From a virus (lineage: Duplodnaviria > Heunggongvirae > Uroviricota > Caudoviricetes): a stretch of DNA of 9,175 bases. The stretch lies in IMG/VR virus record IMGVR_UViG_2531839239_000026; one strand, 5' to 3'. Below are positions 1 through 9,175 of this stretch, in pieces; position 1 is the first letter of the stretch, and every line of letters starts with the position of its first letter. Position numbers and translations under genes: made by a program. A model generated the notes under the pieces. The model searched no databases and had not been told where the DNA came from. It saw only the letters and a list, made by a program, of their open reading frames with translations.

Positions 1-1236
1 CTATGATAACCGCGCATTCAACATGGCTACCTGTTCGTCGTTCATGTCATCAATCCACATACCGTAAATTTCATACACCATCTGCGCAGTTTCATGCCCC
101 ATTTGGCTGGCTATAAATGCCGGGTTCGCTCCTGCCGTCAACAGCCAGCAGGCAAAAGTATGCCGCGTATGGTACGGATTACGGCGGCGAATACCAGCAC
201 GTTTTACTGCTGCATTCCACCTTGCCCCCAAACTGCTTACCGAGTAATAAGGTTTTTGTTTTCCGTTACACACCCTGGGCATGAAAACAAAATGCAGTTT
301 TTGCTTTTCGGTTCTGCCGTACTCCCGATGATAAAAGGTGATTTCGCTTTTGCGATGATGCCCGGTCAGTTTGTATTGCTCCTTCAGTGCTTCAAGAGCA
401 GGCTGCAGTAGTGTTACCGTCCGGATCCCCGCATTTGTTTTTGGGGGACCGAACATATCCAGTATCGTCAGGTTTCTTCTGACATTCACAACTCCCTTCT
501 CGAAATCCACATCCTCCCACGCCAGAGCAGCCAGTTCCCCGTGACGAAGCCCGGAGTATACGGCAAATTTCCACAAGTTCTGGCTCTGTCCTTTTTCACT
601 TTCCATTAATGCATTGAATTCTGTTTTAGATAACGGGTCAGGCTTTATTCTGTTTCTCTGTAATTTCTTTACTCCTTCAAATGGTTTGGTTGATATAAAT
701 CCCGACTGATACGCAAAACGTAACAACGAACAGAGCAGGGCGATATAGTTATCAACTGTGCGCACGGTTCTTCCTTTTTTGTTGGATCTTGGATTATCCA
801 GGTAAAGCGTTTCTCCATGCAGCAGTTCATTCCGGTAGTTTAAGATATCGCTATAACGAATATGCGATATCGGAGTACTCTCACAAATTATTATCCTGAG
901 TGTTTTTAATTGTGATTTCGTTTTCTTCATTGTGTTTGTTGTTAACTCTGTTTCTTTAATTTTTGTCCAGATATCACAAAGCTCCCCGAACGTTTTTATG
1001 ACCCTCGTTGTCACCATTTTTGCCCCAGTGCTGGACTGGGGAAAACGTCTTAAATACTCAAACTCACCGGAATTGATTTCATGAACTATCAACGCTCTTA
1101 AATTCCCGGCTTTTTTAATGTTACTGTTAGTAACCTCCCAGCCTTTCAATGTTTCCCGACATCGTTTTCCTCGAAACATGAACCAGATGCGAATGTATTT
1201 ACCTCGAATCTCGACACCTGTTGGTAATTTAGACAT
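1..1236 (-). CDS. intR: Tyrosine-family phage integrase (IntR-like), 411 aa
   Basis: Track ORF 1..1236 (-), ATG at 1236..1234, stop TAG at 3..1. C-terminus carries an H-x-x-R motif (HTRHTFA) and a downstream Tyr (VYEIY), typical of tyrosine recombinases. Length matches my recall of Rac IntR. Confidence 0.9.
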   Translation of the reverse strand: MSKLPTGVEIRGKYIRIWFMFRGKRCRETLKGWEVTNSNIKKAGNLRALIVHEINSGEFEYLRRFPQSSTGAKMVTTRVIKTFGELCDIWTKIKETELTTNTMKKTKSQLKTLRIIICESTPISHIRYSDILNYRNELLHGETLYLDNPRSNKKGRTVRTVDNYIALLCSLLRFAYQSGFISTKPFEGVKKLQRNRIKPDPLSKTEFNALMESEKGQSQNLWKFAVYSGLRHGELAALAWEDVDFEKGVVNVRRNLTILDMFGPPKTNAGIRTVTLLQPALEALKEQYKLTGHHRKSEITFYHREYGRTEKQKLHFVFMPRVCNGKQKPYYSVSSLGARWNAAVKRAGIRRRNPYHTRHTFACWLLTAGANPAFIASQMGHETAQMVYEIYGMWIDDMNDEQVAMLNARLS

Positions 1237-1237
1237 A

Positions 1238-1453
1238 TCATGAGTCTTTGATAAACTGATTTATCTTTGGATAGTTATACCAGATAATCCCTCGCTTACT
1301 GTCTGGCTTCCCTAAAGGAGATACTCGTTTGAAGTGGAAGCCTTCCACCCAACAGTTCTGGCGGTATGCTTCAATTTGTCTGGCCCCCAGACCAGTGCGA
1401 AGCATCAGGCCGTATTCAACCATCCACTCTTCATTAAAGATTACTTGTGCCAT
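1238..1453 (-). CDS. xisR: Excisionase-like protein (YdaQ/XisR-like), 71 aa
   Basis: Track ORF 1238..1477 trimmed to the ATG at 1453 ([10 protein letters not shown]...), which is preceded by GAGGTG 7 nt upstream. Stop TGA at 1240..1238 abuts the int ATG, the usual xis-int arrangement. Confidence 0.7.
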
Positions 1454-1552
1454 CGCATCACCTCTGGCAGGCGCCAATGTTAGACTTAAATTGACGCCCG
1501 ATGTTGATTATTAATAATCAGCTATGAAGTTTTAATTTGAATACAATGCAAT

Positions 1553-1741
1553 TCACGAGGACTGAAGTTTCTCGCAATTAAAATTTATCAGTTTTACTTT
1601 CTGCTCTCTGGAAACGCCTGCTTCTTTTTTACCTGAGAGCATTTTTTCGCATTCTGATTTCGTTAGTTTAGATTTTGAATATCTTGTCCAGTTAGTAGGA
1701 GTGCCACCTTCCTTTTCAATAGTGGCGGTAATTTTATACAT
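1553..1741 (-). CDS. ydaC: Small Rac-prophage protein YdaC-like, 62 aa
   Basis: Track ORF 1553..1813 trimmed to the ATG at 1741 (MYKITATIEKEGG...), which has a strong SD (GGAGG, 5-nt spacer). The upstream extension overlaps the ralR frame. Start overlaps the TAA that closes the ralR frame (CATGTATAA). Confidence 0.6.
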   Translation of the reverse strand: MYKITATIEKEGGTPTNWTRYSKSKLTKSECEKMLSGKKEAGVSREQKVKLINFNCEKLQSS

Positions 1742-1928
1742 GAACACCTCCATTATTATTTCCAGTGGTTCGTTTATTTCATCGTTCGAGTGCTTCTTTT
1801 TCACTTCCACCATAACCGGTTCGGGATTCGCATCCGTTACACTTCGCTCGGTAATATCCTGAAATGGCTTTCACCGTTACTGATGGACAACCACAAAATG
1901 GACATGGTTTAACATTGTCATATCTCAT
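1734..1928 (-). pseudogene. ralR: Restriction-alleviation protein / DNase toxin RalR (Lar) frame, interrupted by an in-frame TGA at 1781..1779
   Basis: My own translation of the minus strand from ATG 1928 gives MRYDNVKPCPFCGCPSVTVKAISGYYRAKCNGCESRTGYGGSEKEALER, then TGA, then NKRTTGNNNGGVHV, then TAA at 1736..1734. Reading TGA as Trp gives exactly 64 aa, the RalR length I recall. Cys-x2-Cys ... Cys-x2-Cys zinc-ribbon-like pattern. An in-frame ATG also exists at 1940 (MRKIMRY...). Confidence 0.6.
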
Positions 1929-1983
1929 AATTTTTCTCATAAAAATATTTCAAGTTGGCGGTGCATTACACCGCCAGGCTGAA

Positions 1984-2793
1984 TTATTCCTCTGAATTAT
2001 CGATTACACTGTATTCCCCGGTTAATACAGAGGAATCTGCAGGATCGATTGTCAGTGGTTCCTTTTCATCCATTGATACTGCACGCTGGATCTCAATTGA
2101 TACGGGCAGATATTTGAACAGGCGACGAATAGCCGTTTTCTTTGCCATTTCTTCCCAGTGAGTTACCCACGGCCCGTTATTACCAGCTTTACTCTGGCTG
2201 CGCACCAGCTCAATCTGTTTGCGCGTCATAACTTCAAACTGAGTACCTCCGTCTTTCAGTCTTGCGACAGCATAGACGTGGGTAACAGGGGCATCTTCGT
2301 TTTCTCCTGGGCGGTGTATTAACTTTTCATCAAGGCCAAATTCGAAATTAAACTCGTCACCTTCACGGACAACACGGGCTGACAAGCTGGCGATTTGACC
2401 TGAACGGCGAGCCAGATCAATCATGCCTCGATAGCCAATGATTAGCTGAACGTTTTTTTTACCGCTCTTTTCGTTTTTATTACCAAAAGGCAGTAAATAT
2501 GCATGACCGAGGGCGCTACCGGGCTCAAGTCCGAGCTGTGAACACTGTACGATTGCACTGACAAAACTCATAGTGTCACAGTTTCCTAACGCCGGAACTT
2601 TACGAATTTCTGTGGTGGCGATACGGATCATACGTTCAGCCGTCATATGGCGTGGAAGAGCTGCTGCCAGTTGCTCTTTCATTGATGGCTGGTTAATAAA
2701 ACTAATCACGTCGTTATTTTTAATTGCTGCTGGTGCACGGTTTCCCTGAGTTTTTTGCAGATCGGCTTTTGCGATTGGTGGTTGCTTAGTCAT
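1984..2793 (-). CDS. recT: RecT single-strand annealing protein, 269 aa
   Basis: Track ORF 1984..2850 trimmed to ATG 2793 ([16 protein letters not shown]...), preceded by AAGGA 8 nt upstream. Start overlaps the recE stop by 8 nt. Sequence and length match my recall of RecT. Confidence 0.9.
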
Positions 2794-5386
2794 TTGCATA
2801 TTCCTTAGCCCAGCGGGGCAGTGATAACGTCTTAATAGCTGGCCATTCATCGGTATTGAGGCAGTCAGCCAGGGTTCGCAGATTGCGGTGATATTCCAGC
2901 TGACCTGCCAGTTTTGCTTCTTCGCCCATCATGAAAATTTCAACCGGATAACGTCCGCATTCAATAGTTGTGCTGGCAACCAGAAAAACGAAAGTTGGCT
3001 GCACTCCAAACTGTGCTTCATAACCGTCACTGTAGAATGCATCCTGAACGTGATAGCGGTAGTCGTAATAAGCGGTTTTGAATCGTTGAATATCCGCCGT
3101 AGTTTTCACGTCCATGATCCAGTGAAATTCAGGGATAATTTTGTCCGGACGGCACCGACACAAAATTGCTGTTTCAGGATCTTCCCAGTAAATTGATGAT
3201 TCAGCGTGTCCGGCGCTTTCAACAAGCCATTGCCCCAGCGGCAAAGCCATAACGCTCTGATACATGAGTTCAATTTTCCGGCCTTCTTCGGCAGTGATAA
3301 CCGTTTTTCCTGTGCTTGCGCATTCCCTCAGAAACGCTTTCTCTTCTTCTTTTCCGGAGTTTGTCCGGCGGTTAAATTCAGGTGCTACGATAAAGCGGTT
3401 ACTGAATTCTTCCGGCTCAAGTACCCGGCAGTGGAAAGCGGTTCCTAAATCGAGCGTTTTTGTCTTTGTGGTGTCCACGGGGGCATTTTTACGCCACAAA
3501 TACAGTGCCGGAGTATCAGCAATGTCATCGAGCTGAGACTTACTGACACCGGGACCCGCGTGGTAATTCTCATTCGAAATTCCGTAATAAATACCTGGCT
3601 CTATGTCTTCTACGATTACGGGATCTGCGACTTCGCCAGTTTCATCACTGCAATCGCGATGCGGATCGCTGCCAGCATTCTCATTGTGCGGATGTTCAGC
3701 GCCTTCCATTTCCTCCGGATCATTTTCCTTAGCTTCAACCTGACTCTCTTCATCGAATGTTTCCTGGTATGTTGCGTCGCCCATCACCGCACCACAGTCA
3801 GGGCAGTTATCCCCGCCAGTCTGGCCGCAGGCATTGCAGGCTATTTCCGGTTCCTGTTGCACTACTGGCTCAGGTTGATTCATATCCGGGCTGGTTTTTT
3901 CCGTTTCTGGCTGGTTCTGGTACACACAATCGCGAGTCTGGATCCCCTTTACCCATTTCGGATCGTTCGGGTCGCTAATTCCGTCAACAAATTCACCACG
4001 TGATGCAGCAAGCAATTTATCGGCATCGACAGGATTTTTTGATGGAATGTTTTTCCGGGCTTCATGGAGTTCTGCCCGCAGTTCCTGATATTTCGCATCA
4101 ACAGAATTTACCTGTGACTGAGCATCCAGCGGCTGCGTGTCCTGATGATGTTCAGTTGCGTCCGGTTCCATTGTTTCAGCCTCTCCCTGTTCAACTGCCG
4201 TTGTTCCAGATGGTTGCGGTTTTTCTTCATCATCCTGTTTTCCTTCTTCTGTTACTCGCTGCGGCATCGGGGCAGAGGAGCGACCGCAGGCAATATCCAC
4301 GATTTCCGGATCAGGGTTGGCATGAGCGGTTTCAGTCAGTACTTTGTTCAGATATTCAGTGACGTGCGCGGGGATGACCTCGATCCCAATTGGTGCTTCT
4401 TTTACGGACGCAACCACGATGGCGCGGGAATAATCCAGCCCGCCAGGCATGGTGATGAATTTGTCGCGGAAAACAGAAAAGGGCGGTTTATTTTCAGCGA
4501 TAATTTCCTCAATGCGTTTAGCGTGTGCCGGATGAAGGTTATAGATGTCCAGATCCATTGAACGGGCCAGTACGCCAGTGGCTACGTCGCGCGCCAGTGA
4601 CGTCAGATCGTGTACGAAACCTTCGCCGCGATCGGTGAGGTTTCCGCCGCCAGCATTAGCACCGGAAGCCGTGCGAGTGATGTGTGAAACACGATTACCC
4701 TTCATCCACTCTTTTGTCAGCAGTCCTCGATCGGTGTAGTCAGCGTTCAGGTATGCTTCGAAAAAAGCAGTTATCAGTCCCAGGTTTGAATTACCAGGAT
4801 TAGGGAAAACTTTGTCAGTGTCACGAACCAGTTTGTGGAGTTCGCGAATTTCCAGCGGGTCGAGCAGGCTGGTTTTGTGGGAAACAGCCAGGGCAGTAAC
4901 AGCCGGTAGTTCTTCAGCCCGAGCAATGTGTAATGCCTGGAGTCCGTCGCGTGAAACGTGCGTTACCGGTTTTTCGCTGCCGTGTTGAGCAAGCCAACGA
5001 ATGGGCAGTTCCTGGCCAGAAATTGGGAGTAGCATATTCTCCTCAATCTCAGTCATGTCTTCGCCGTTGACGTTGGTATTGCCTTGATAGTGAGCGTTGT
5101 CTGGTGCTGCTCCCGGTTTTAGTTCCCATGTCATGGAGTCTTTGCTGAGTTGATAGCGTTCACTCCAGGTAAAATCGATCTCACCTTCAGCGGGCAGGTC
5201 ATTAACGACAGGAAAATTCGTGGCAACAGCTTTAAAATAGCTGCTCAGTTTTTTACCTGACTTAACGATCAGGTAGTCCAGAGTGGCACAGGTCGATTCA
5301 AAATCGTTGCTTGCCCACAGGACGACGTCAGGTTCACCGGATGATTTTTTCGCTTTCCGTAACAGGAAGAGTGGTTTTGTGCTCAT
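2786..5386 (-). CDS. recE: RecE exonuclease VIII, 866 aa
   Basis: Track ORF 2786..5386 (-), [14 protein letters not shown]..., full length 866 aa. Has an acidic, low-complexity central region and a C-terminal nuclease region. Overlaps recT. Confidence 0.9.
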
Positions 5387-5457
5387 TGTTTTTTAACCTC
5401 AACTCAGATTAAAATTCGTTTTGTTCAGTGAATGATCTTGCCGGATACACACTGTTC

Positions 5458-5482
5458 ATAGCCTGCGCCATACGCAGGCTAT
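5458..5482. other. Perfect 10-bp-stem hairpin between recE and racC
   Basis: ATAGCCTGCG-CCATA-CGCAGGCTAT: 5458-5467 pairs with 5473-5482, 5-nt loop. Confidence 0.4.
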
Positions 5483-5487
5483 TTCTT

Positions 5488-5763
5488 TCAGATTTCACCT
5501 TTTAATTTCATTGCAATTAGAGTTGCCAGAAATTCGGCTTTTTTTTCTGTGGGCAGATTCTTTCCGATATGCACCAGGCACATTTTTTTGACACCTTCAT
5601 CAAGTGTTTTTACGTTGCCTGATGGACCATCGATATCAACCACAGTGAATGGGGTTTCTTTATTTTCTGTTTTAATTACGTAGCCAATGCGCTTTCCTTC
5701 CAGATTCACCTCGTGAACAATGTCATCGGTAGTTACAACAGTGGCTTCATAATTGGTAATCAT
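5488..5763 (-). CDS. racC: RacC-like protein, 91 aa
   Basis: Track ORF 5488..5811 trimmed to ATG 5763 (MITNYEATVVTTDD...), preceded by AAGGAG with a 6-nt spacer. Confidence 0.75.
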   Translation of the reverse strand: MITNYEATVVTTDDIVHEVNLEGKRIGYVIKTENKETPFTVVDIDGPSGNVKTLDEGVKKMCLVHIGKNLPTEKKAEFLATLIAMKLKGEI

Positions 5764-5837
5764 GTTTTTCTCCTTAATTAAGGTTGAGCGAATACCTGCC
5801 ATTTCTGGCATAAATTCAGTTTCGAATAGTCAATTAA

Positions 5838-6008
5838 TTAAAGTTCATGTGCCATCTGGTCTTTTTCGGCACAAGCTTCACTGCAATATTTTCTCGGTTC
5901 GTCTTTTGATAAAATCCCGTGCATGAAGTGAAGCATTCTTTCAATAGCTTTGCTTTCTTCAACGTCTTTTTTGCAAAGGTGGTAAGCACATTTTATTTTC
6001 TTAGTCAT
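5838..6008 (-). CDS. ydaE: YdaE-like small Cys-rich (metal-binding) protein, 56 aa
   Basis: Not in the ORF track because it is under 60 aa. My translation from ATG 6008: [56 protein letters not shown], stop TAA at 5840..5838. ATG overlaps the kilR TGA (ATGA). Confidence 0.7.
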   Translation of the reverse strand: MTKKIKCAYHLCKKDVEESKAIERMLHFMHGILSKDEPRKYCSEACAEKDQMAHEL

Positions 6009-6229
6009 CACCATGACTCCGCCTTTACAGGTAAACCATCACGACCGAGGAAGACTTTAATCATGCGGTCAGTAATGCATGTTTTTGTGGTCAGGTTACG
6101 AATATATAGTTTTCGCTTTTTAATATTGTTTGCCGAGGCAATATATGTCCGGCCTTCATGAAGAACATAATCGCCAGGAGTCACACACTGACGTGGTATT
6201 TCATCAGTTCCGAAGTGATGTGCAATCAT
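6008..6229 (-). CDS. kilR: KilR-like killing / cell-division inhibitor protein, 73 aa
   Basis: Track ORF 6008..6241 trimmed to ATG 6229 ([14 protein letters not shown]...), preceded by GGAG 8 nt upstream. Confidence 0.8.
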
Positions 6230-6410
6230 AATTATCTCCATTTTTACAAATGAACTTTGTTGATGCGGTGCCTGGTGCCTCCAGGTGACTGCAACCAGTT
6301 AACAATTACAGTCGGCTTTCCCACCCAAACCAATAAGGACTAACATGACTTTTAACTGTGCCACGTGCGCTTAGCCGCATTCACCGCATCACAAAATTCA
6401 CTTTAAAAAG

Positions 6411-6452
6411 GGCGGACATCAGCCGAACTTCAAGAAAAAAACTGATGCCGCC
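6411..6452. other. Long interrupted inverted repeat in the kilR-sieB intergenic region
   Basis: GGCGGACATCAG (6411-6422) and CTGATGCCGCC (6442-6452) form an 11-bp stem with one bulged A around a 19-nt A-rich loop. On the minus strand it is followed by CTTTTTAAA. Confidence 0.3.
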
Positions 6453-6627
6453 AGGACTACACACAGCAATGTCGTTATTTACAACCGGAGGCGCACTCCC
6501 ACCATTTAAATTTAACAGACAAGACCGACTCTTTATGGATATCGGAAATGCGCCTTCGTGTTGTGCCCGGTTTTATTTCACCACCTCCGGGCTTCGGTGG
6601 TCTCGGCTATACCCCTACAGCGAGAGC

Positions 6628-6656
6628 TTGTGTTAACATTTCAATACCCTTACAGT
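6628..6656 (+). promoter_or_regulatory. Candidate sigma70 promoter for sieB
   Basis: TTGTGT (6628-6633), 17-bp spacer, TACAGT (6651-6656), 14 nt upstream of the sieB ATG. Sequence inspection only. Confidence 0.25.
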
Positions 6657-6670
6657 TGAGAGTTATTGAT

Positions 6671-7159
6671 ATGTTGGATGTATTTACTCCATTGTTGAAA
6701 CTTTTTGCTAACGAGCCACTCGAAAGACTTATGTATACGATTATCATTTTTGGTCTCACTCTCTGGCTGATACCGAAAGAGTTTACTGTCGCATTCAATG
6801 CTTATACTGAAATACCTTGGCTCTTTCAGATTATCGTTTTTGCCTTTTCTTTCGTGGTCGCCATTTCCTTCTCAAGATTGCGAGCACATATTCAAAAGCA
6901 TTATTCATTACTACCAGAGCAACGAGTATTGCTTCGTTTATCTGAGAAAGAAATCGCTGTATTTAAAGATTTCCTTAAAACAGGAAATCTTATTATCACT
7001 TCTCCTTGCCGTAACCCGGTTATGAAAAAATTAGAACGGAAGGGCATCATTCAACATCAGAGTGATAGCGCAAACTGTTCTTATTATCTCGTCACCGAAA
7101 AATACTCCCATTTTATGAAGTTATTCTGGAACAGCAGGAGTAGACGTTTTAATCGTTAG
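6671..7159 (+). CDS. sieB: Superinfection exclusion protein SieB-like, 162 aa
   Basis: Track ORF 6548..7159 trimmed to ATG 6671 (MLDVFTPLLKLFANEPLERLMYTIIIFGLTLWLIPKEF...). Two hydrophobic segments suggest a membrane protein. The N-terminal extension in the track is a Pro/Gly-rich intergenic read-in. Confidence 0.8.
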   Translation: MLDVFTPLLKLFANEPLERLMYTIIIFGLTLWLIPKEFTVAFNAYTEIPWLFQIIVFAFSFVVAISFSRLRAHIQKHYSLLPEQRVLLRLSEKEIAVFKDFLKTGNLIITSPCRNPVMKKLERKGIIQHQSDSANCSYYLVTEKYSHFMKLFWNSRSRRFNR

Positions 7160-7311
7160 CTTACTGTGTGCTTCTCCAACCATCGGCGCGCACCAGTTTC
7201 GGTTTTAAATGTTTTGCTTTTGGTATACGTCATGGCAGTGAACGTTCCATCCTGGTTGGGGAACACGCCGCACACCAGGGATTCGTTGTTGCCGAGGTCG
7301 ATTTTTTGCAT
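7156..7311 (-). CDS. ydaF: YdaF-like small protein, 51 aa
   Basis: Not in the ORF track. My translation from ATG 7311: MQKIDLGNNESLVCGVFPNQDGTFTAMTYTKSKTFKTETGARRWLEKHTVS, stop TAA 7158..7156. Its stop overlaps the sieB TAG (7157..7159) on the opposite strand. Confidence 0.65.
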   Translation of the reverse strand: MQKIDLGNNESLVCGVFPNQDGTFTAMTYTKSKTFKTETGARRWLEKHTVS

Positions 7312-7321
7312 TTTGCGAATC

Positions 7322-7456
7322 TCACATCTTGTTGCTACGTATAGCGACTTCTGCCTGCCAGAGATCCCAGTCGTTGCTGCGTAAAGCCTGCACAGCCTGG
7401 TTGTAAGTGATACCGCAACAATCCATCAAATACTGAACTACTTCGTAATGCACCAT
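7322..7456 (-). CDS. ydaG: YdaG-like small protein, 44 aa
   Basis: Not in the ORF track. My translation from ATG 7456: MVHYEVVQYLMDCCGITYNQAVQALRSNDWDLWQAEVAIRSNKM, stop TGA 7324..7322. A GGGGA SD-like element lies upstream. Confidence 0.65.
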   Translation of the reverse strand: MVHYEVVQYLMDCCGITYNQAVQALRSNDWDLWQAEVAIRSNKM

Positions 7457-7632
7457 CTTATCTATCCCCTTAACGCCGGGTGGCGGAACTAACTGCTGCA
7501 CTGCAAAATTTGAATCCCGCCGTCATGTTCATACGCCTCGGGCTGGCTACTTACCCCCTGACCACTGCTTGGTAACTCGAAGTATTGCCCGGCGTTCTGT
7601 GGGGCGGGGTGGGTGGTTGGTGTATGTAATCT

Positions 7633-7672
7633 ACAATAAAAAACTGTTTTTGTGTCAACAGTTTTTAATTGT
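7633..7672. promoter_or_regulatory. OL-like operator dyad with a leftward -35-like TTGACA in its spacer
   Basis: Left arm ACAATAAAAAACTGTT at 7633-7648, right arm AACAGTTTTTAATTGT at 7657-7672 (one mismatch to a perfect inverted repeat). Spacer TTTGTGTC reads TTGACA on the minus strand (7658..7653). The 16-mer left arm is identical to 8668-8683. Confidence 0.45.
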
Positions 7673-7682
7673 TGTTTTGGGC

Positions 7683-7705
7683 AAAAAAATCCCTCGAAAG
7701 AGGGA
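7683..7705 (-). terminator. Candidate intrinsic terminator downstream of parE
   Basis: Minus-strand RNA folds as UCCCUC-UUUC-GAGGGA (6-bp stem, 7690-7695 with 7700-7705) followed by seven U (plus-strand A-run 7683-7689). It starts 18 nt after the parE stop. Confidence 0.4.
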
Positions 7706-7723
7706 GTATGAAAATTGTTCAAC

Positions 7724-8011
7724 TCAGATAGAGAAGGGAAATTGTCGCCGAGAATGTGTCACGCTTACAATCTCAATGCTTGAAGCAGCTACTCTGTACA
7801 GGATTATGTAGTTAGGGTGGGTCACGATCTCTCTCAATCCAGAAACCCGTTCGCTTGGTGGATATAAGTACGGATGCTCAGATAGAGGTAATACCGATGT
7901 TTCAATGCGTATTTTTAGTCTACGTGCTGCCGGTGGGTTCTCCTTGGCGATGTAAGTTATGATCTGGCGCAAATCATCGCGAGCAGACGGTAGCCATAAA
8001 ATGGGTAACAT
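7724..8011 (-). CDS. parE: ParE/RelE-superfamily toxin (ParE-like), 95 aa
   Basis: Track ORF 7724..8011 (-). The C-terminal region ...LREIVTHPNYIILYRVAASSIEIVSVTHSRRQFP resembles the ParE/RelE fold signature. Start ATG overlaps the upstream gene's stop (TAATG), indicating translational coupling in toxin-after-antitoxin order. Confidence 0.75.
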   Translation of the reverse strand: MLPILWLPSARDDLRQIITYIAKENPPAARRLKIRIETSVLPLSEHPYLYPPSERVSGLREIVTHPNYIILYRVAASSIEIVSVTHSRRQFPFSI

Positions 8012-8202
8012 TACTCGCTCTTGTTAGTTACAGCAATTTGAGCAATAAGATTTTCCATTTCAGCCATTACCTCGTCATGTGGAATTGCGGGGCGAGTGTC
8101 TGCAAGGCTTGACGTTACTTTAGTGCGCAACCATTCGTTGTAACTGTTTTCTTGTTCGGTAGTTTCGAATTCTGAAACTATCGGAGAAAGGGCTGTACCC
8201 AT
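8011..8202 (-). CDS. paaA: Small antitoxin, PaaA-like partner of ParE, 63 aa
   Basis: Track ORF 8011..8202 (-), MGTALSPIVSEFETTEQENSYNEWLRTKV..., preceded by a strong SD (GAGGAG, 7-nt spacer). Small and acidic, immediately upstream of and coupled to the ParE-like gene. Resembles the PaaA2 antitoxin of the three-component paaR2-paaA2-parE2 system from my recall. Confidence 0.6.
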   Translation of the reverse strand: MGTALSPIVSEFETTEQENSYNEWLRTKVTSSLADTRPAIPHDEVMAEMENLIAQIAVTNKSE

Positions 8203-8229
8203 GGCATAACTCCTCTTCTTGTACTGTGG

Positions 8230-8631
8230 TCACGCCCGGCGGCTTTTTTGTGCCGCCAGCCACCTAGCAATGGTTTCTTCCATTGATTTTTTCTTGTCTT
8301 TGATTTCTTGAAGCATTTTTTCTTGGTCTTCCTCAGGAAACGCACTAAAAGCTTGGAGCAGTTCGCGTTGGCGAGGACCAATTTTCATCGTGTCAGGGGT
8401 GAAAATTTGCTCACACTCTTCAGGAGGCAATAAAAACCAATGCAATGGATGCCCTGAAACCTCAACCAGTTTATCCAAACTTGAGGCTTTAGGTGTAGCC
8501 TTACCGCTGACCCATTGTTGAACAGTTTGTTGTGTCACACCAATTCTACGGGCAAGCTCAGCCTGGCTCCATCCAGTTTCCTGAAGAAGCTTGCTGATTC
8601 TGTACATAGATACTTCTAGGGCGCTCATCAT
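8230..8631 (-). CDS. cI-like / PaaR-like HTH (XRE-family) repressor, 133 aa
   Basis: Track ORF 8230..8631 (-). HTH region ...SQAELARRIGVTQQTVQQWVSGKATPK... No LexA/S24-type peptidase C-terminal domain is apparent. Divergent from the Cro-like gene across the dyad-containing intergenic region. No SD precedes the ATG. Confidence 0.75.
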   Translation of the reverse strand: MMSALEVSMYRISKLLQETGWSQAELARRIGVTQQTVQQWVSGKATPKASSLDKLVEVSGHPLHWFLLPPEECEQIFTPDTMKIGPRQRELLQAFSAFPEEDQEKMLQEIKDKKKSMEETIARWLAAQKSRRA

Positions 8632-8667
8632 TATTCAATTTTACAGGTAAATACTGTTAAAAGCATC

Positions 8668-8706
8668 ACAATAAAAAACTGTTGATTGCATACAGTTTTT
8701 TATTGT
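8668..8706. promoter_or_regulatory. OR-like operator dyad between the divergent repressor and cro-like genes
   Basis: Perfect 15-bp inverted repeat: ACAATAAAAAACTGT at 8668-8682 and ACAGTTTTTTATTGT at 8692-8706, separated by TGATTGCAT. The spacer carries rightward -35-like TTGATT/TTGCAT hexamers. The left arm is the same 16-mer as 7633-7648. Confidence 0.5.
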
Positions 8707-8739
8707 AGGCTTTGCTTATAGTTTTTAGAGGAGGGCAAA

Positions 8740-9012
8740 ATGCTAGATAGCACTCGCGAAAAAATTAGGCAGAAATACACTCAGGCTGAAATAGGTCGTT
8801 ATATGGGGGTCGCTCAACAGACTGTTTGGCAATGGTTTAGCTTTGGCGTTCCCCCAAAGCAGGTAATTCCGTTATGCCAACTAATGAAGTGGGAAGTTAC
8901 CCCGCATGAAATCCGCCCAGATATTTATCCTAACCCAACCGACGGTTTACCTGTTGGATGTAAGGTTAACACATCAAATGCGCCGGAGTTGATTCATGAA
9001 AATCAAGCATGA
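8740..9012 (+). CDS. ydaS: Cro-like HTH regulator (YdaS family), 90 aa
   Basis: Track ORF 8740..9012 (+), MLDSTREKIRQKYTQAEIGRYMGVAQQTVWQWF... HTH-like region, GGAGG SD with a 4-nt spacer. Sits in the cro position, divergent from the repressor. Confidence 0.7.
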   Translation: MLDSTREKIRQKYTQAEIGRYMGVAQQTVWQWFSFGVPPKQVIPLCQLMKWEVTPHEIRPDIYPNPTDGLPVGCKVNTSNAPELIHENQA

Positions 9013-9175
9013 ACACATCCGCATGGCGATGAATGCCTGGGCGCATCCGGACGGCGAAAAAGTACCGGCTGCGAAAATTACCAAAGCGTATTTCGAGCTG
9101 GGAATGACGTTCCCGGAACTGTATGACGACAGCCATCCGGAAGCCATGGCTCGCAATACTCAGAAAATTTTCCGT
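8996..9175 (+). CDS. ydaT: YdaT-like protein, N-terminal 60 codons (runs off the window end)
   Basis: ATG at 8996 preceded by GGAG with a 7-nt spacer. Translation MKIKHEHIRMAMNAWAHPDGEKVPAAKITKAYFELGMTFPELYDDSHPEAMARNTQKIFR stays open to the window end. Overlaps the ydaS 3' end by 17 nt. Confidence 0.65.
   Translation, partial: MKIKHEHIRMAMNAWAHPDGEKVPAAKITKAYFELGMTFPELYDDSHPEAMARNTQKIFR

Follow-up and report, generated by a model that had tools for sequence, protein, structure and literature searches.

The paaR1-paaA1-parE1 operon as the probable leftward half of a Rac-type lambdoid immunity cassette

The region at positions 7724-8631 of the analysed sequence (the 9,175 nucleotides of the viral record IMGVR_UViG_2531839239_000026, hereafter the window) very probably holds the paaR1-paaA1-parE1 operon, which would form the leftward half of a Rac-type lambdoid immunity cassette and serve as an addiction module. 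This is the known operon of Escherichia coli O157:H7 (Hallez 2010), real but ordinary and already described. The literature already covers the operon, the structures of its close type-2 relatives (toxin and antitoxin) and the cI-rexAB placement, and the locus itself has little discovery value. The additions made here are an operator motif, a probable leaderless start, a YdaT site, a cassette swap and the linkage of the genes across 80 viral contigs. The features are collected in Table 1.

Table 1. Features of the immunity region within the window
Feature	Position	Strand	Basis or remarks
Exchangeable immunity cassette (OL, terminator, parE, paaA, paaR, OR, cro)	7626..8984		blastn of the window against other prophages
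PL-like promoter, leftward	TTGACA (-35) 7658..7653, 19-nt spacer, TAGATT 7633..7628	-	read by eye
OL, two 15-bp operators	7633-7647, 7658-7672		motif ACARTN5AYTGT
Terminator-like hairpin, 6-bp stem and 4-nt loop, then T7	7705..7683	-	TCCCTC-TTTC-GAGGGA
parE1, 95-aa toxin	7724..8011	-	ParE/RelE fold (predicted)
paaA1, 63-aa antitoxin	8011..8202	-	PaaA2 family, without DNA-binding domain
paaR1, 133-aa immunity repressor	8230..8631	-	HTH_3 and DicA-type C-terminal oligomerisation domain
PRM-like promoter	-10 TAAAAT 8643..8638, then 6 nt, paaR1 ATG	-	read by eye
OR, three 15-bp operators	8643-8657 (one mismatch), 8668-8682, 8692-8706		starts 25 and 24 bp apart
PR-like promoter	TTGATT 8682-8687, 18 nt, TAGGCT 8706-8711	+	read by eye
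Cro analogue (YdaS family), 90 aa, divergent from paaR1	8740..9012	+	Pfam YdaS_toxin 8e-10
YdaT operator TTGATT-N6-AATCAA, exact	8989..9006		overlaps ydaT start; 0.09 chance matches expected
ydaT 5' part (CII analogue), runs past the window end	8996..9175	+	translation MKIKHEHIRMAMNAWAHPDGEK...

Gene layout and protein identities

The earlier note had described three packed minus-strand genes for an HTH repressor, an antitoxin-like protein and a ParE/RelE-like toxin, and the list of open reading frames agrees exactly in both position and length. The HTH regulator gene lies directly upstream of paaA1-parE1 on the same strand, as in PaaR-PaaA-ParE systems. The paaR1 stop and the paaA1 start are separated by 27 nt, including a GAGGAG located 5 nt upstream of the paaA1 ATG, and the spacing between paaA1 and parE1 is -1 nt. 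At 8009-8013 the plus-strand letters are CATTA, hence the expected TAATG on the minus strand, and base 8011 thus belongs to both the antitoxin stop and the toxin start. Through this TAATG, parE1 is predicted to be translationally coupled to paaA1. No minus-strand terminator was found between the three genes, and one terminator-like site lies 3' of parE1; together with the tight spacing, this is compatible with transcription of the present copy as a single operon. Co-transcription was demonstrated for the paralogue paaR2-paaA2-parE2 only (PMC8630535). A further open reading frame (7489..7722, 77 aa, TTG start) was rejected as a gene, as it extends across OL and the terminator and lacks annotation in all related records.

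Profile searches gave all three proteins the family that had been proposed for them. ParE1 matches Pfam ParE_toxin (PF05016) over its full length, far beyond chance (2.9e-17), and is 67% identical over 92 residues to EcParE2 (PDB 5cw7_B, 3e-36), an identity at which the EcParE2 crystal structure settles the fold predicted for ParE1. The sole Pfam match of PaaA1 is PaaA2 (PF21217, 5.6e-19), next to NCBIfam TA_RelB_antitoxin (1.6e-26) and the PaaA2 structure 3zbe in the PDB (1.4e-20). PaaR1 matches Pfam HTH_3 in its N-terminal part (2.3e-12) and Phage_CI_repr (7.4e-05), the N-terminal domain of 434 repressor in the PDB (3e-05), and the NCBIfam DicA subfamily over residues 11-130 (8.4e-14, under that family's cut-off). 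The Pfam profile search gave no Peptidase_S24 match in PaaR1. Because its C-terminal domain is of the DicA type and not an S24 autopeptidase, RecA-dependent cleavage is not expected; PaaR1 works like CI but falls outside the CI/LexA family. No PaaR2-like chain was found among the PDB sequences, and the PaaR1 C-terminal domain is thus not linkable to a solved structure.

Identity with the O157:H7 locus

The likeness to the paaR-paaA-parE architecture of O157:H7, which the earlier note had pointed out, goes beyond resemblance. PaaR1, PaaA1, ParE1 and the Cro-like protein are 100% identical to ECs_1069, ECs_1068, ECs_1067 and ECs_1070 of the O157:H7 prophage Sp4 (CP-933M type). At the nucleotide level, 505 complete E. 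coli genomes, most of them O157:H7, show 99.8% identity with the window at 7506-9174. The O157:H7 paaR1 locus (CP-933M in EDL933, Sp4 in Sakai) shows 99.1-99.8% nucleotide identity over 7465-9174, with the same operators, terminator and ydaT junction, and only the host element differs: Sp4 next to yccA there, Rac next to ttcA here. In RefSeq, the three proteins bear only the names "helix-turn-helix domain-containing protein", "RelB family antitoxin" and "RelE/ParE family toxin", so the assignment is a useful gain in annotation.

For the identical O157:H7 proteins, ParE toxicity, neutralisation by the cognate antitoxin and Clp-dependent antitoxin degradation were reported (Hallez 2010, as relayed in PMC4803016), and toxicity, specific neutralisation and Clp degradation were likewise reported for PaaA2-ParE2. 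PaaA1 and PaaA2 each neutralise their own toxin only (PMC4803016). Degradation of the antitoxin by ClpXP and ClpAP as well as post-segregational killing were also published for the O157:H7 systems.

Operators, promoters and terminator

The left operator proposed in the earlier note is borne out by a repeat: ACAATAAAAAACTGT and ACAGTTTTTAATTGT, found at 7633-7672, recur as a pair at 8668-8706, between the repressor and cro genes. With 6 matches in the window, the motif ACARTN5AYTGT exceeds the 1.2 expected by chance, and at least 6 were found in 0 of 200 shuffles. Among the viral contigs with a PaaR1-type repressor, 36 out of 36 carry operator pairs, perfectly conserved, at both OR and OL.

The OR operators overlap the PRM-like and PR-like promoters. 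A consensus promoter scan reported none of the PRM-, PR- and PL-like promoters, and its single match, fewer than in shuffles, was on the plus strand inside parE1; the scan accepted spacers of 16-18 nt, and the PL-like candidate has 19 nt. These promoters are therefore by-eye readings, weak matches backed by analogy with the mapped paralogue. In the paralogue, a leaderless paaR2 start was mapped by 5' RACE (PMC8630535). The paaR1 PRM has the same geometry of a -10 box, 6 nt and ATG as leaderless paaR2 (GATAAT-TACCAC-ATG), and by this analogy the paaR1 start is probably leaderless too.

The hairpin and U-tract placed by the earlier note just before the left operator are indeed there, 19 nt past the parE1 stop. 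The folding energy is -9.9 kcal/mol (z = -1.3 against shuffles), and this short hairpin thus has the shape of a terminator while being statistically unremarkable alone. Hairpin and T-run presumably mark the end of the operon, as a t_imm analogue.

The cro and ydaT side of the immunity region

Several features of a lambdoid switch are present around paaR1: the repressor and cro genes diverge from a stretch with multiple operators common to both, these operators come back at a distant OL where a PL-like promoter was read by eye, and a gene for a CII-type activator, with a site of its own, lies downstream of cro. The RecA-stimulated self-cleaving S24 domain on the repressor is absent. The Cro role of the YdaS-family protein is assigned by analogy with the paralogue (PMC8630535). 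The ydaT translation matches YdaT of phage Evi and of O157. The YdaT operator motif is taken from PMC9986795, and a YdaT-activated PRE was described in PMC8630535; the site at 8989-9006 would presumably be PRE-like, driving leftward transcription through cro into paaR-paaA-parE.

Comparison with related immunity regions

A close relative is paaR2-paaA2-parE2 (CP-933P/Sp12; also in phage Evi, LR597642), with the same gene order and the same position in the immunity region; a homologue of this paaR2 system sits on CP-933M (PMC8630535). Its ydaT shows 98% nucleotide identity with the present one, its ParE and PaaA are 67% and 62% identical, and the repressors share 64% identity in their last 47 residues. 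In contrast, no relation exists between the N-terminal DNA-binding domains of the repressors, between the operators (GTTTAGTAA-type repeats in the type-2 system) or between the cro genes, which makes the type-1 and type-2 systems heteroimmune. The C-terminal third of PaaA2 differs from that of PaaA1, which fits the reported absence of cross-neutralisation, and two OL sites are found here versus three reported for the paralogue. In the paralogue, Jurenas et al. 2021 (PMC8630535) recognised the analogues of CI (PaaR2), Cro (YdaS) and CII (YdaT), along with PL and OL. PaaR2 is also without an S24-type self-cleaving domain (PMC8630535). There, the toxin-antitoxin pair occupies the cI-rexAB slot, acts as an addiction module and stabilises a plasmid by post-segregational killing, toxin activity being undetected in both transcriptional states (PMC8630535). 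The earlier note was thus right in placing the pair in this slot.

Lambda cI-rexA-rexB has the same layout as found here: downstream of the repressor gene, accessory genes share its PRM/PRE transcript in the interval from OR to OL, a terminator precedes OL, and the repressor has multiple operators at OR as well as at OL. The cargo differs (RexAB in lambda, a ParE toxin-antitoxin pair here), and so does the repressor, which has an S24 autopeptidase in lambda and a DicA-type C-terminal domain in PaaR1. DicA of Qin and the Rac-type repressors have the same build as PaaR1, a small HTH and a helical C-terminal domain; the position between ydaG/ydaF and ydaS/ydaT is shared as well, and the repressor of the Rac prophage of strain 40EC (139 aa) aligns with PaaR1 over its full length at 28% identity. 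Unlike paaR1, these repressor genes are without a downstream toxin-antitoxin pair.

Exchange of the cassette in a Rac backbone

The backbone is a K-12-type Rac near ttcA, with intR, xisR, ralR, recT, recE, kilR, sieB, ydaF and ydaG. The cassette is flanked by a left linker (7465-7625) and by ydaT (8985 onward), both common to other prophages. Sequence comparison indicates that the whole cassette, from OL to cro, was swapped into this Rac backbone. Among 5,426 complete E. coli genomes, the top match of the whole window covers 85%, and no locus covering at least 80% of 7200-7900, i.e. the junction between the Rac left part and the cassette, was found. In GTDB species-representative genomes, the junction of a Rac-specific left anchor with a cassette anchor gave 0 matches.

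Linkage across viral contigs

An HTH regulator gene lies directly upstream of paaA-parE, on the same strand, in 80 out of 80 viral contigs with a related ParE. Throughout these 80 contigs, paaA and parE stay linked to the C-terminal domain of the repressor, and it is the DNA-binding domain that changes; in every related locus covered, the operators and cro change along with it, and at least 4 heteroimmune N-terminal types occur. By eye, one of these types resembles the N-terminus of lambda CI. A tblastn search of ParE against 50,697 phage records gave phage Evi as sole match, with a type-2 system whose parE is unannotated.

Such linkage might reflect a functional coupling of PaaR with PaaA-ParE beyond adjacency, or a selfish ratchet of toxin-bearing cassettes; we consider this reading unlikely. 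In the case of coupling, PaaA-ParE could bind to the C-terminal domain of PaaR and in this way inform the lysis-lysogeny switch about the toxin:antitoxin state. The PaaA-ParE complex, without a DNA-binding domain, was reported as a co-repressor; a ternary complex is not reported in published work. In the case of a ratchet, toxin-bearing immunity cassettes could displace toxin-free ones in inter-prophage recombination, and such a displacement seems to have occurred in the present Rac element.

Proposed function and alternative explanations

In the addiction-module reading that we prefer, PaaR1 would be the CI equivalent, binding the 15-bp operators at OR (three) and OL (two) and thereby silencing transcription of the cro(ydaS)-ydaT operon to the right and of the early operon to the left. 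The paaR1 mRNA would begin at or beside the ATG, from the PRM-like promoter, and continue through paaA1 and parE1 to the hairpin and T-run before OL. A YdaT-activated PRE-like promoter at the ydaT start would probably feed the same transcript. PaaA1 would be a labile antitoxin without DNA-binding domain, wrapped around ParE1; the paralogue ParE2 is nucleoid-associated and induces SOS. Since the pair would be made only from lysogenic promoters, loss or replacement of the cassette or prophage would leave a stable toxin and no antitoxin, hence the addiction that we infer for the type-1 system. The gene identities, operators, cassette boundaries and linkage come from the present analysis; toxicity, specific neutralisation, ClpXP/ClpAP degradation, post-segregational killing and the CI, Cro and CII roles are carried over from published work on O157:H7. 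The functional evidence concerns O157:H7 proteins only, mostly the type-2 paralogue, whose repressor has an unrelated DNA-binding domain.

The earlier note had offered addiction or abortive-infection defence as the role of the pair; of the two, only the former has experimental backing, from the paralogue. As rexAB-like anti-phage cargo, the pair would respond to an infecting phage that disturbs the synthesis or stability of PaaA, the freed ParE then aborting infection. Position and control by a lysogenic promoter are the same as for rexAB, the window also carries the exclusion or killing genes sieB, kilR and ralR, and type II toxin-antitoxin systems are increasingly tied to defence in part of the literature. 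Against this, PADLOC models gave no match for PaaA or ParE and only generic HTH matches for the repressor, a literature search found no report of anti-phage defence by PaaA-ParE, neither protein shows sequence relation to RexA or RexB, and for this family post-segregational killing alone has been demonstrated as a phenotype. Defence by PaaA-ParE thus finds no support, and we regard it as quite improbable.

Another explanation, which we judge very improbable, is a self-contained tripartite module in which PaaR and PaaA form a "split antitoxin" and PaaR regulates its own operon only, not prophage immunity. This was the original view of the system in 2010, as far as PMC4803016 relays it, and PaaR is indeed small and without a RecA-cleavable domain. 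However, the paralogue PaaR2 mainly represses ydaS-ydaT and PL (PMC8630535). Moreover, the same operators are found again at OL, at a distance of 1 kb and overlapping a PL-like promoter; the operon is flanked by genes for a divergent Cro analogue and for a CII analogue with its operator; and exchange takes the cassette as one block, reaching from OL to cro. Finally, that the locus is a mere remnant, without present function, of a cryptic prophage in decay is extremely improbable: the Rac-type prophage of E. coli K-12 is cryptic and paralogue toxin activity was undetected at steady state, but all reading frames are intact with 100% identical copies in hundreds of genomes, the exact ParE1 protein is indexed in 13,226 blocks of a public assembly collection, the operators are perfectly conserved at both sites of all 36 PaaR1-type loci, and the O157 systems are reportedly expressed in their natural host.

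Implications

With the paaR1-paaA1-parE1 operon read as part of an immunity cassette, the window is a natural example of a toxin-bearing immunity cassette moving between prophage backbones via conserved flanking linkers. This movement bears on the published proposal that the toxin-antitoxin pair may police recombination in the immunity region.

Identity of the operon

The 7506-9174 segment of the window is 99.8% identical to a prophage of E. coli O157:H7; at 99% identity or more, it has matches in 505 complete genomes. In strain TR01, the matching prophage adjoins yccA and encodes PaaR, PaaA, ParE and Cro-like proteins that do not differ from the window's own (100% identity each), which bears out the paaR-paaA-parE architecture that an earlier note had pointed to in O157:H7. 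The Sakai annotation places the locus in prophage Sp4, which we take to be CP-933M, as ECs_1067 ("plasmid stabilization system protein"), ECs_1068, ECs_1069 ("phage repressor protein"), ECs_1070 and ECs_1071. The crystallised system is type 2 (paaR2-paaA2-parE2), located on CP-933P, with a homologue on CP-933M (PMC8630535). With 67% identity to type 2 and full identity to the other O157:H7 copy, the system of the window is paaR1-paaA1-parE1 (type 1).

The six-frame ORF list gives three co-directional minus-strand genes with exactly the coordinates previously claimed (Table). At 8009-8013 the coding strand has TAATG (CATTA on the plus strand), in which the stop codon of the antitoxin and the start codon of the toxin overlap by one base, again as claimed. 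Between the repressor stop codon and the paaA1 ATG there are 27 nt, with GAGGAG 5 nt ahead of the ATG, and no minus-strand terminator was found between the three genes. The operon was also said to end at a hairpin and U-tract ahead of the left operator (OL), and both elements are found in that order. At -9.9 kcal/mol and z = -1.3 against shuffles, this short hairpin owes its reading as a terminator to shape and position, not to statistics.

Coordinates of the features found in the window
Feature	Position	Strand	Remark
paaR1 repressor ORF, 133 aa	8230..8631	-	six-frame ORF list
paaA1 antitoxin ORF, 63 aa	8011..8202	-	six-frame ORF list
parE1 toxin ORF, 95 aa	7724..8011	-	six-frame ORF list
Terminator-like hairpin TCCCTC-TTTC-GAGGGA, then seven T	7705..7683	-	19 nt past toxin stop
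Predicted OR operators ACARTN5AYTGT	8643 (one mismatch), 8668, 8692		between paaR and cro; motif search
Predicted OL operators ACARTN5AYTGT	7633, 7658		just past terminator; motif search
Candidate PR-like promoter TTGATT, 18 nt, TAGGCT			operator within spacer; by eye
Candidate PL-like promoter TTGACA, 19 nt, TAGATT			operator within spacer; by eye
Predicted YdaT operator, exact TTGATT-N6-AATCAA, TTGATTCATGAAAATCAA	8989-9006		over ydaT start codon and last cro codons
RalA sRNA, full-length (Rfam RF02694)	1557-1735	+	225 bits, above gathering score; antisense and adjacent to the next ORF
ralR/lar-type ORF	1779-1940	-	
DicF, sub-threshold Rfam match	6410-6465	-	39 bits, gathering score 48; upstream of kilR, leftward early operon
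STnc100, sub-threshold Rfam match	6222-6408	-	35.5 bits, gathering score 47; upstream of kilR, leftward early operon
SieB (superinfection exclusion B) ORF, listed 203 aa	6548-7159	+	
ORF, 59 aa	7322-7501	-	weak UBA-like Pfam match, 7e-05

Profile searches agreed with the proposed identity of all three proteins. ParE1 matches Pfam ParE_toxin from end to end (2.9e-17) and, at 67% identity, the crystal structure of E. coli O157 ParE2 (5cw7_B; 3e-36). PaaA1 matches Pfam PaaA2 (5.6e-19), the PaaA2 structure 3zbe of the PDB (1.4e-20) and, in NCBIfam, the RelB-type antitoxin equivalog (1.6e-26). The identity between PaaA1 and PaaA2 is high up to residue 45 and falls sharply beyond; at the sequence level, this divergence fits the finding that PaaA1 does not neutralise ParE2, nor PaaA2 ParE1 (PMC4803016). 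PaaR1 carries an N-terminal HTH_3 domain (2.3e-12) and a weak Phage_CI_repr match in Pfam, and in the PDB its N-terminus resembles the N-terminal domain of the 434 repressor. Its whole-length alignment to the DicA subfamily model (8.4e-14) is under the family cut-off, and the Pfam profile search found no S24 peptidase domain in PaaR1.

Outside the operon, RalA and the ralR/lar-type ORF constitute a second toxin-antitoxin system of the window, of type I. The Pfam match and RefSeq homologue annotation of SieB begin about 40-60 codons inside the listed ORF; this ORF shares 4 nt with the end of the DUF1391/ydaF gene, which runs in the opposite direction. Among the genes downstream of the PL-like promoter, the 59-aa ORF comes first; its C-terminal 44 residues match a "phage protein" annotated in strain 40EC, presumably ydaG of Rac.

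Operators and promoters

The motif ACARTN5AYTGT, a 15-bp imperfect palindrome, has 6 matches in the window against 1.2 expected, a number reached in none of 200 shuffles; the one at 745 presumably arose by chance. Neighbouring operator starts are spaced by 24-25 bp, and the two perfect sites between paaR1 and cro (OR) are nearly identical to the OL pair. Of the OR sites, the leftmost one adjoins the putative paaR1 -10 (an OR3-like position) and the middle one the weak -35 region (an OR2-like position). Read by eye, the paaR1 strand shows TAAAAT-TGAATA-ATG, and the type-2 locus GATAAT-TACCAC-ATG. Because this geometry is like that of type 2, whose transcription start is the A of the paaR2 ATG by 5' RACE (PMC8630535), we infer that the paaR1 mRNA is leaderless; no Shine-Dalgarno sequence was found upstream of paaR1. 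A consensus promoter scan reported none of the PRM-, PR- and PL-like promoters. The YdaT operator motif is taken from PMC9986795; ydaT starts at 8996, with its first 17 nt inside the end of cro.

Cassette exchange in a Rac prophage

The window is 98.8% (1-7625) and 99.5% (8985-9174) identical to the Rac-type prophage adjoining ttcA in strain 40EC, whose genes include intR, xisR, rcbA, ralR, recT, recE, racC, ydaE, kilR, sieB and ydaF. This prophage has another repressor (139 aa) and another cro (84 aa), without the toxin-antitoxin pair. The O157 Sp4-type prophage matches 7465-9174 with an otherwise different left arm. The segment 7626-8984, which extends from OL as far as the end of cro, is therefore immunity-type-specific: the window combines a K-12-type Rac backbone with an Sp4-type paaR1 cassette. 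This swap is a classical modular exchange of lambdoid phages.

The cassette is flanked by a 160-bp linker (7465-7625) and by ydaT, and both flanks (7465-7625 and 8985-9174) are common to Rac, Sp4, a yebY-site prophage (L006, L015) and Escherichia phage Evi. From their sequences, these linkers look like homology arms for exchange of the immunity cassette. The prophages that have both in common are otherwise different. Situated immediately downstream of the PL-like promoter, the left linker includes the start of the ydaG-like ORF of 59 aa. The junction of the Rac ydaF/ydaG arm with the type-1 cassette (near 7465-7626) was found in none of 5,426 complete E. coli genomes, where the best whole-window coverage was 85%, nor in the GTDB species representatives.

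Linkage to the toxin-antitoxin pair

Among 50,697 phage genomes, relatives of the ParE1 toxin were found only in phage Evi. This phage has a complete paaR2-paaA2-parE2 operon, in which parE2 is unannotated (L013 4001-4276, i.e. LR597642.1 24917-25192).

We then surveyed 80 IMG/VR contigs encoding a ParE 84-100% identical to that of the window; paaA and a repressor ORF lie directly upstream of parE in all 80. The C-terminal ~47 residues of the repressor, linked to paaA-parE, are 64-100% identical to those of PaaR1 across these loci, whereas at least three classes of N-terminal domain can be told apart: PaaR1-type (36 loci), 56% identical to PaaR1's (5 loci), and 166-aa repressors with a different HTH_3 N-terminus (39 loci), lambda-CI-like by eye and joined to the PaaR C-terminal domain. 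PaaR2 represents a fourth class, its N-terminal domain being unrelated to that of PaaR1 while 30 of the last 47 residues are identical. The operators differ from class to class. The ACARTN5AYTGT operators occur only in PaaR1-type loci, with pairs at OR and OL in 36 out of 36. The conserved block therefore consists of the repressor C-terminal domain, paaA and parE, the DNA-binding domain, operators and cro being exchanged. The simplest explanation is that these elements lie physically side by side and that recombination breakpoints fall in the linker between the repressor domains. The C-terminal domain might also be functionally coupled to paaA-parE; published work found no ternary complex (PMC4803016).

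Function of the operon

According to Jurenas et al. 2021 (PMC8630535), the type-2 operon is part of a lambdoid prophage's immunity region. PaaR2, encoded by a leaderless mRNA, is the CI analogue and competes with YdaS, the Cro analogue, for repeats between the divergent operons; both repress a PL-like promoter with OL operators past the toxin gene, an arrangement explicitly likened by the authors to cI-rexA-rexB. YdaT is the CII analogue, and the PRE-like promoter that it activates is located between ydaS and ydaT. Through post-segregational killing the locus stabilises an otherwise unstable plasmid, yet no toxin activity was seen in either steady transcriptional state, and the authors proposed that the toxin-antitoxin pair guards the immunity region against recombination (PMC8630535). 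Both the system and the "cI-rexAB slot" reading put forward in the earlier note, which the present analysis supports, are thus already in the literature. Small additions to it are the operators of type 1, the swap of the cassette into Rac and the linked block of repressor C-terminal domain and toxin-antitoxin pair.

The abortive-infection-type defence also suggested there has only positional logic on its side: a PADLOC search for anti-phage defence gave no match for PaaA or ParE, and no literature on such a role of the pair was found. A stand-alone tripartite toxin-antitoxin module is contradicted by the OL operators and the cro/CII context, and an inert relic by perfect conservation over very many assemblies. 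We consider it very probable, for identity and architecture, that PaaR1 serves this prophage as its CI-type repressor, with paaA and parE carried on its PRM and PRE transcripts; the biological role, addiction, is less certain. From a PRE-like promoter at the YdaT site, transcription would run leftward, crossing cro in antisense before it reaches paaR-paaA-parE, and loss or replacement of the cassette would be made lethal by the PaaA-ParE pair.
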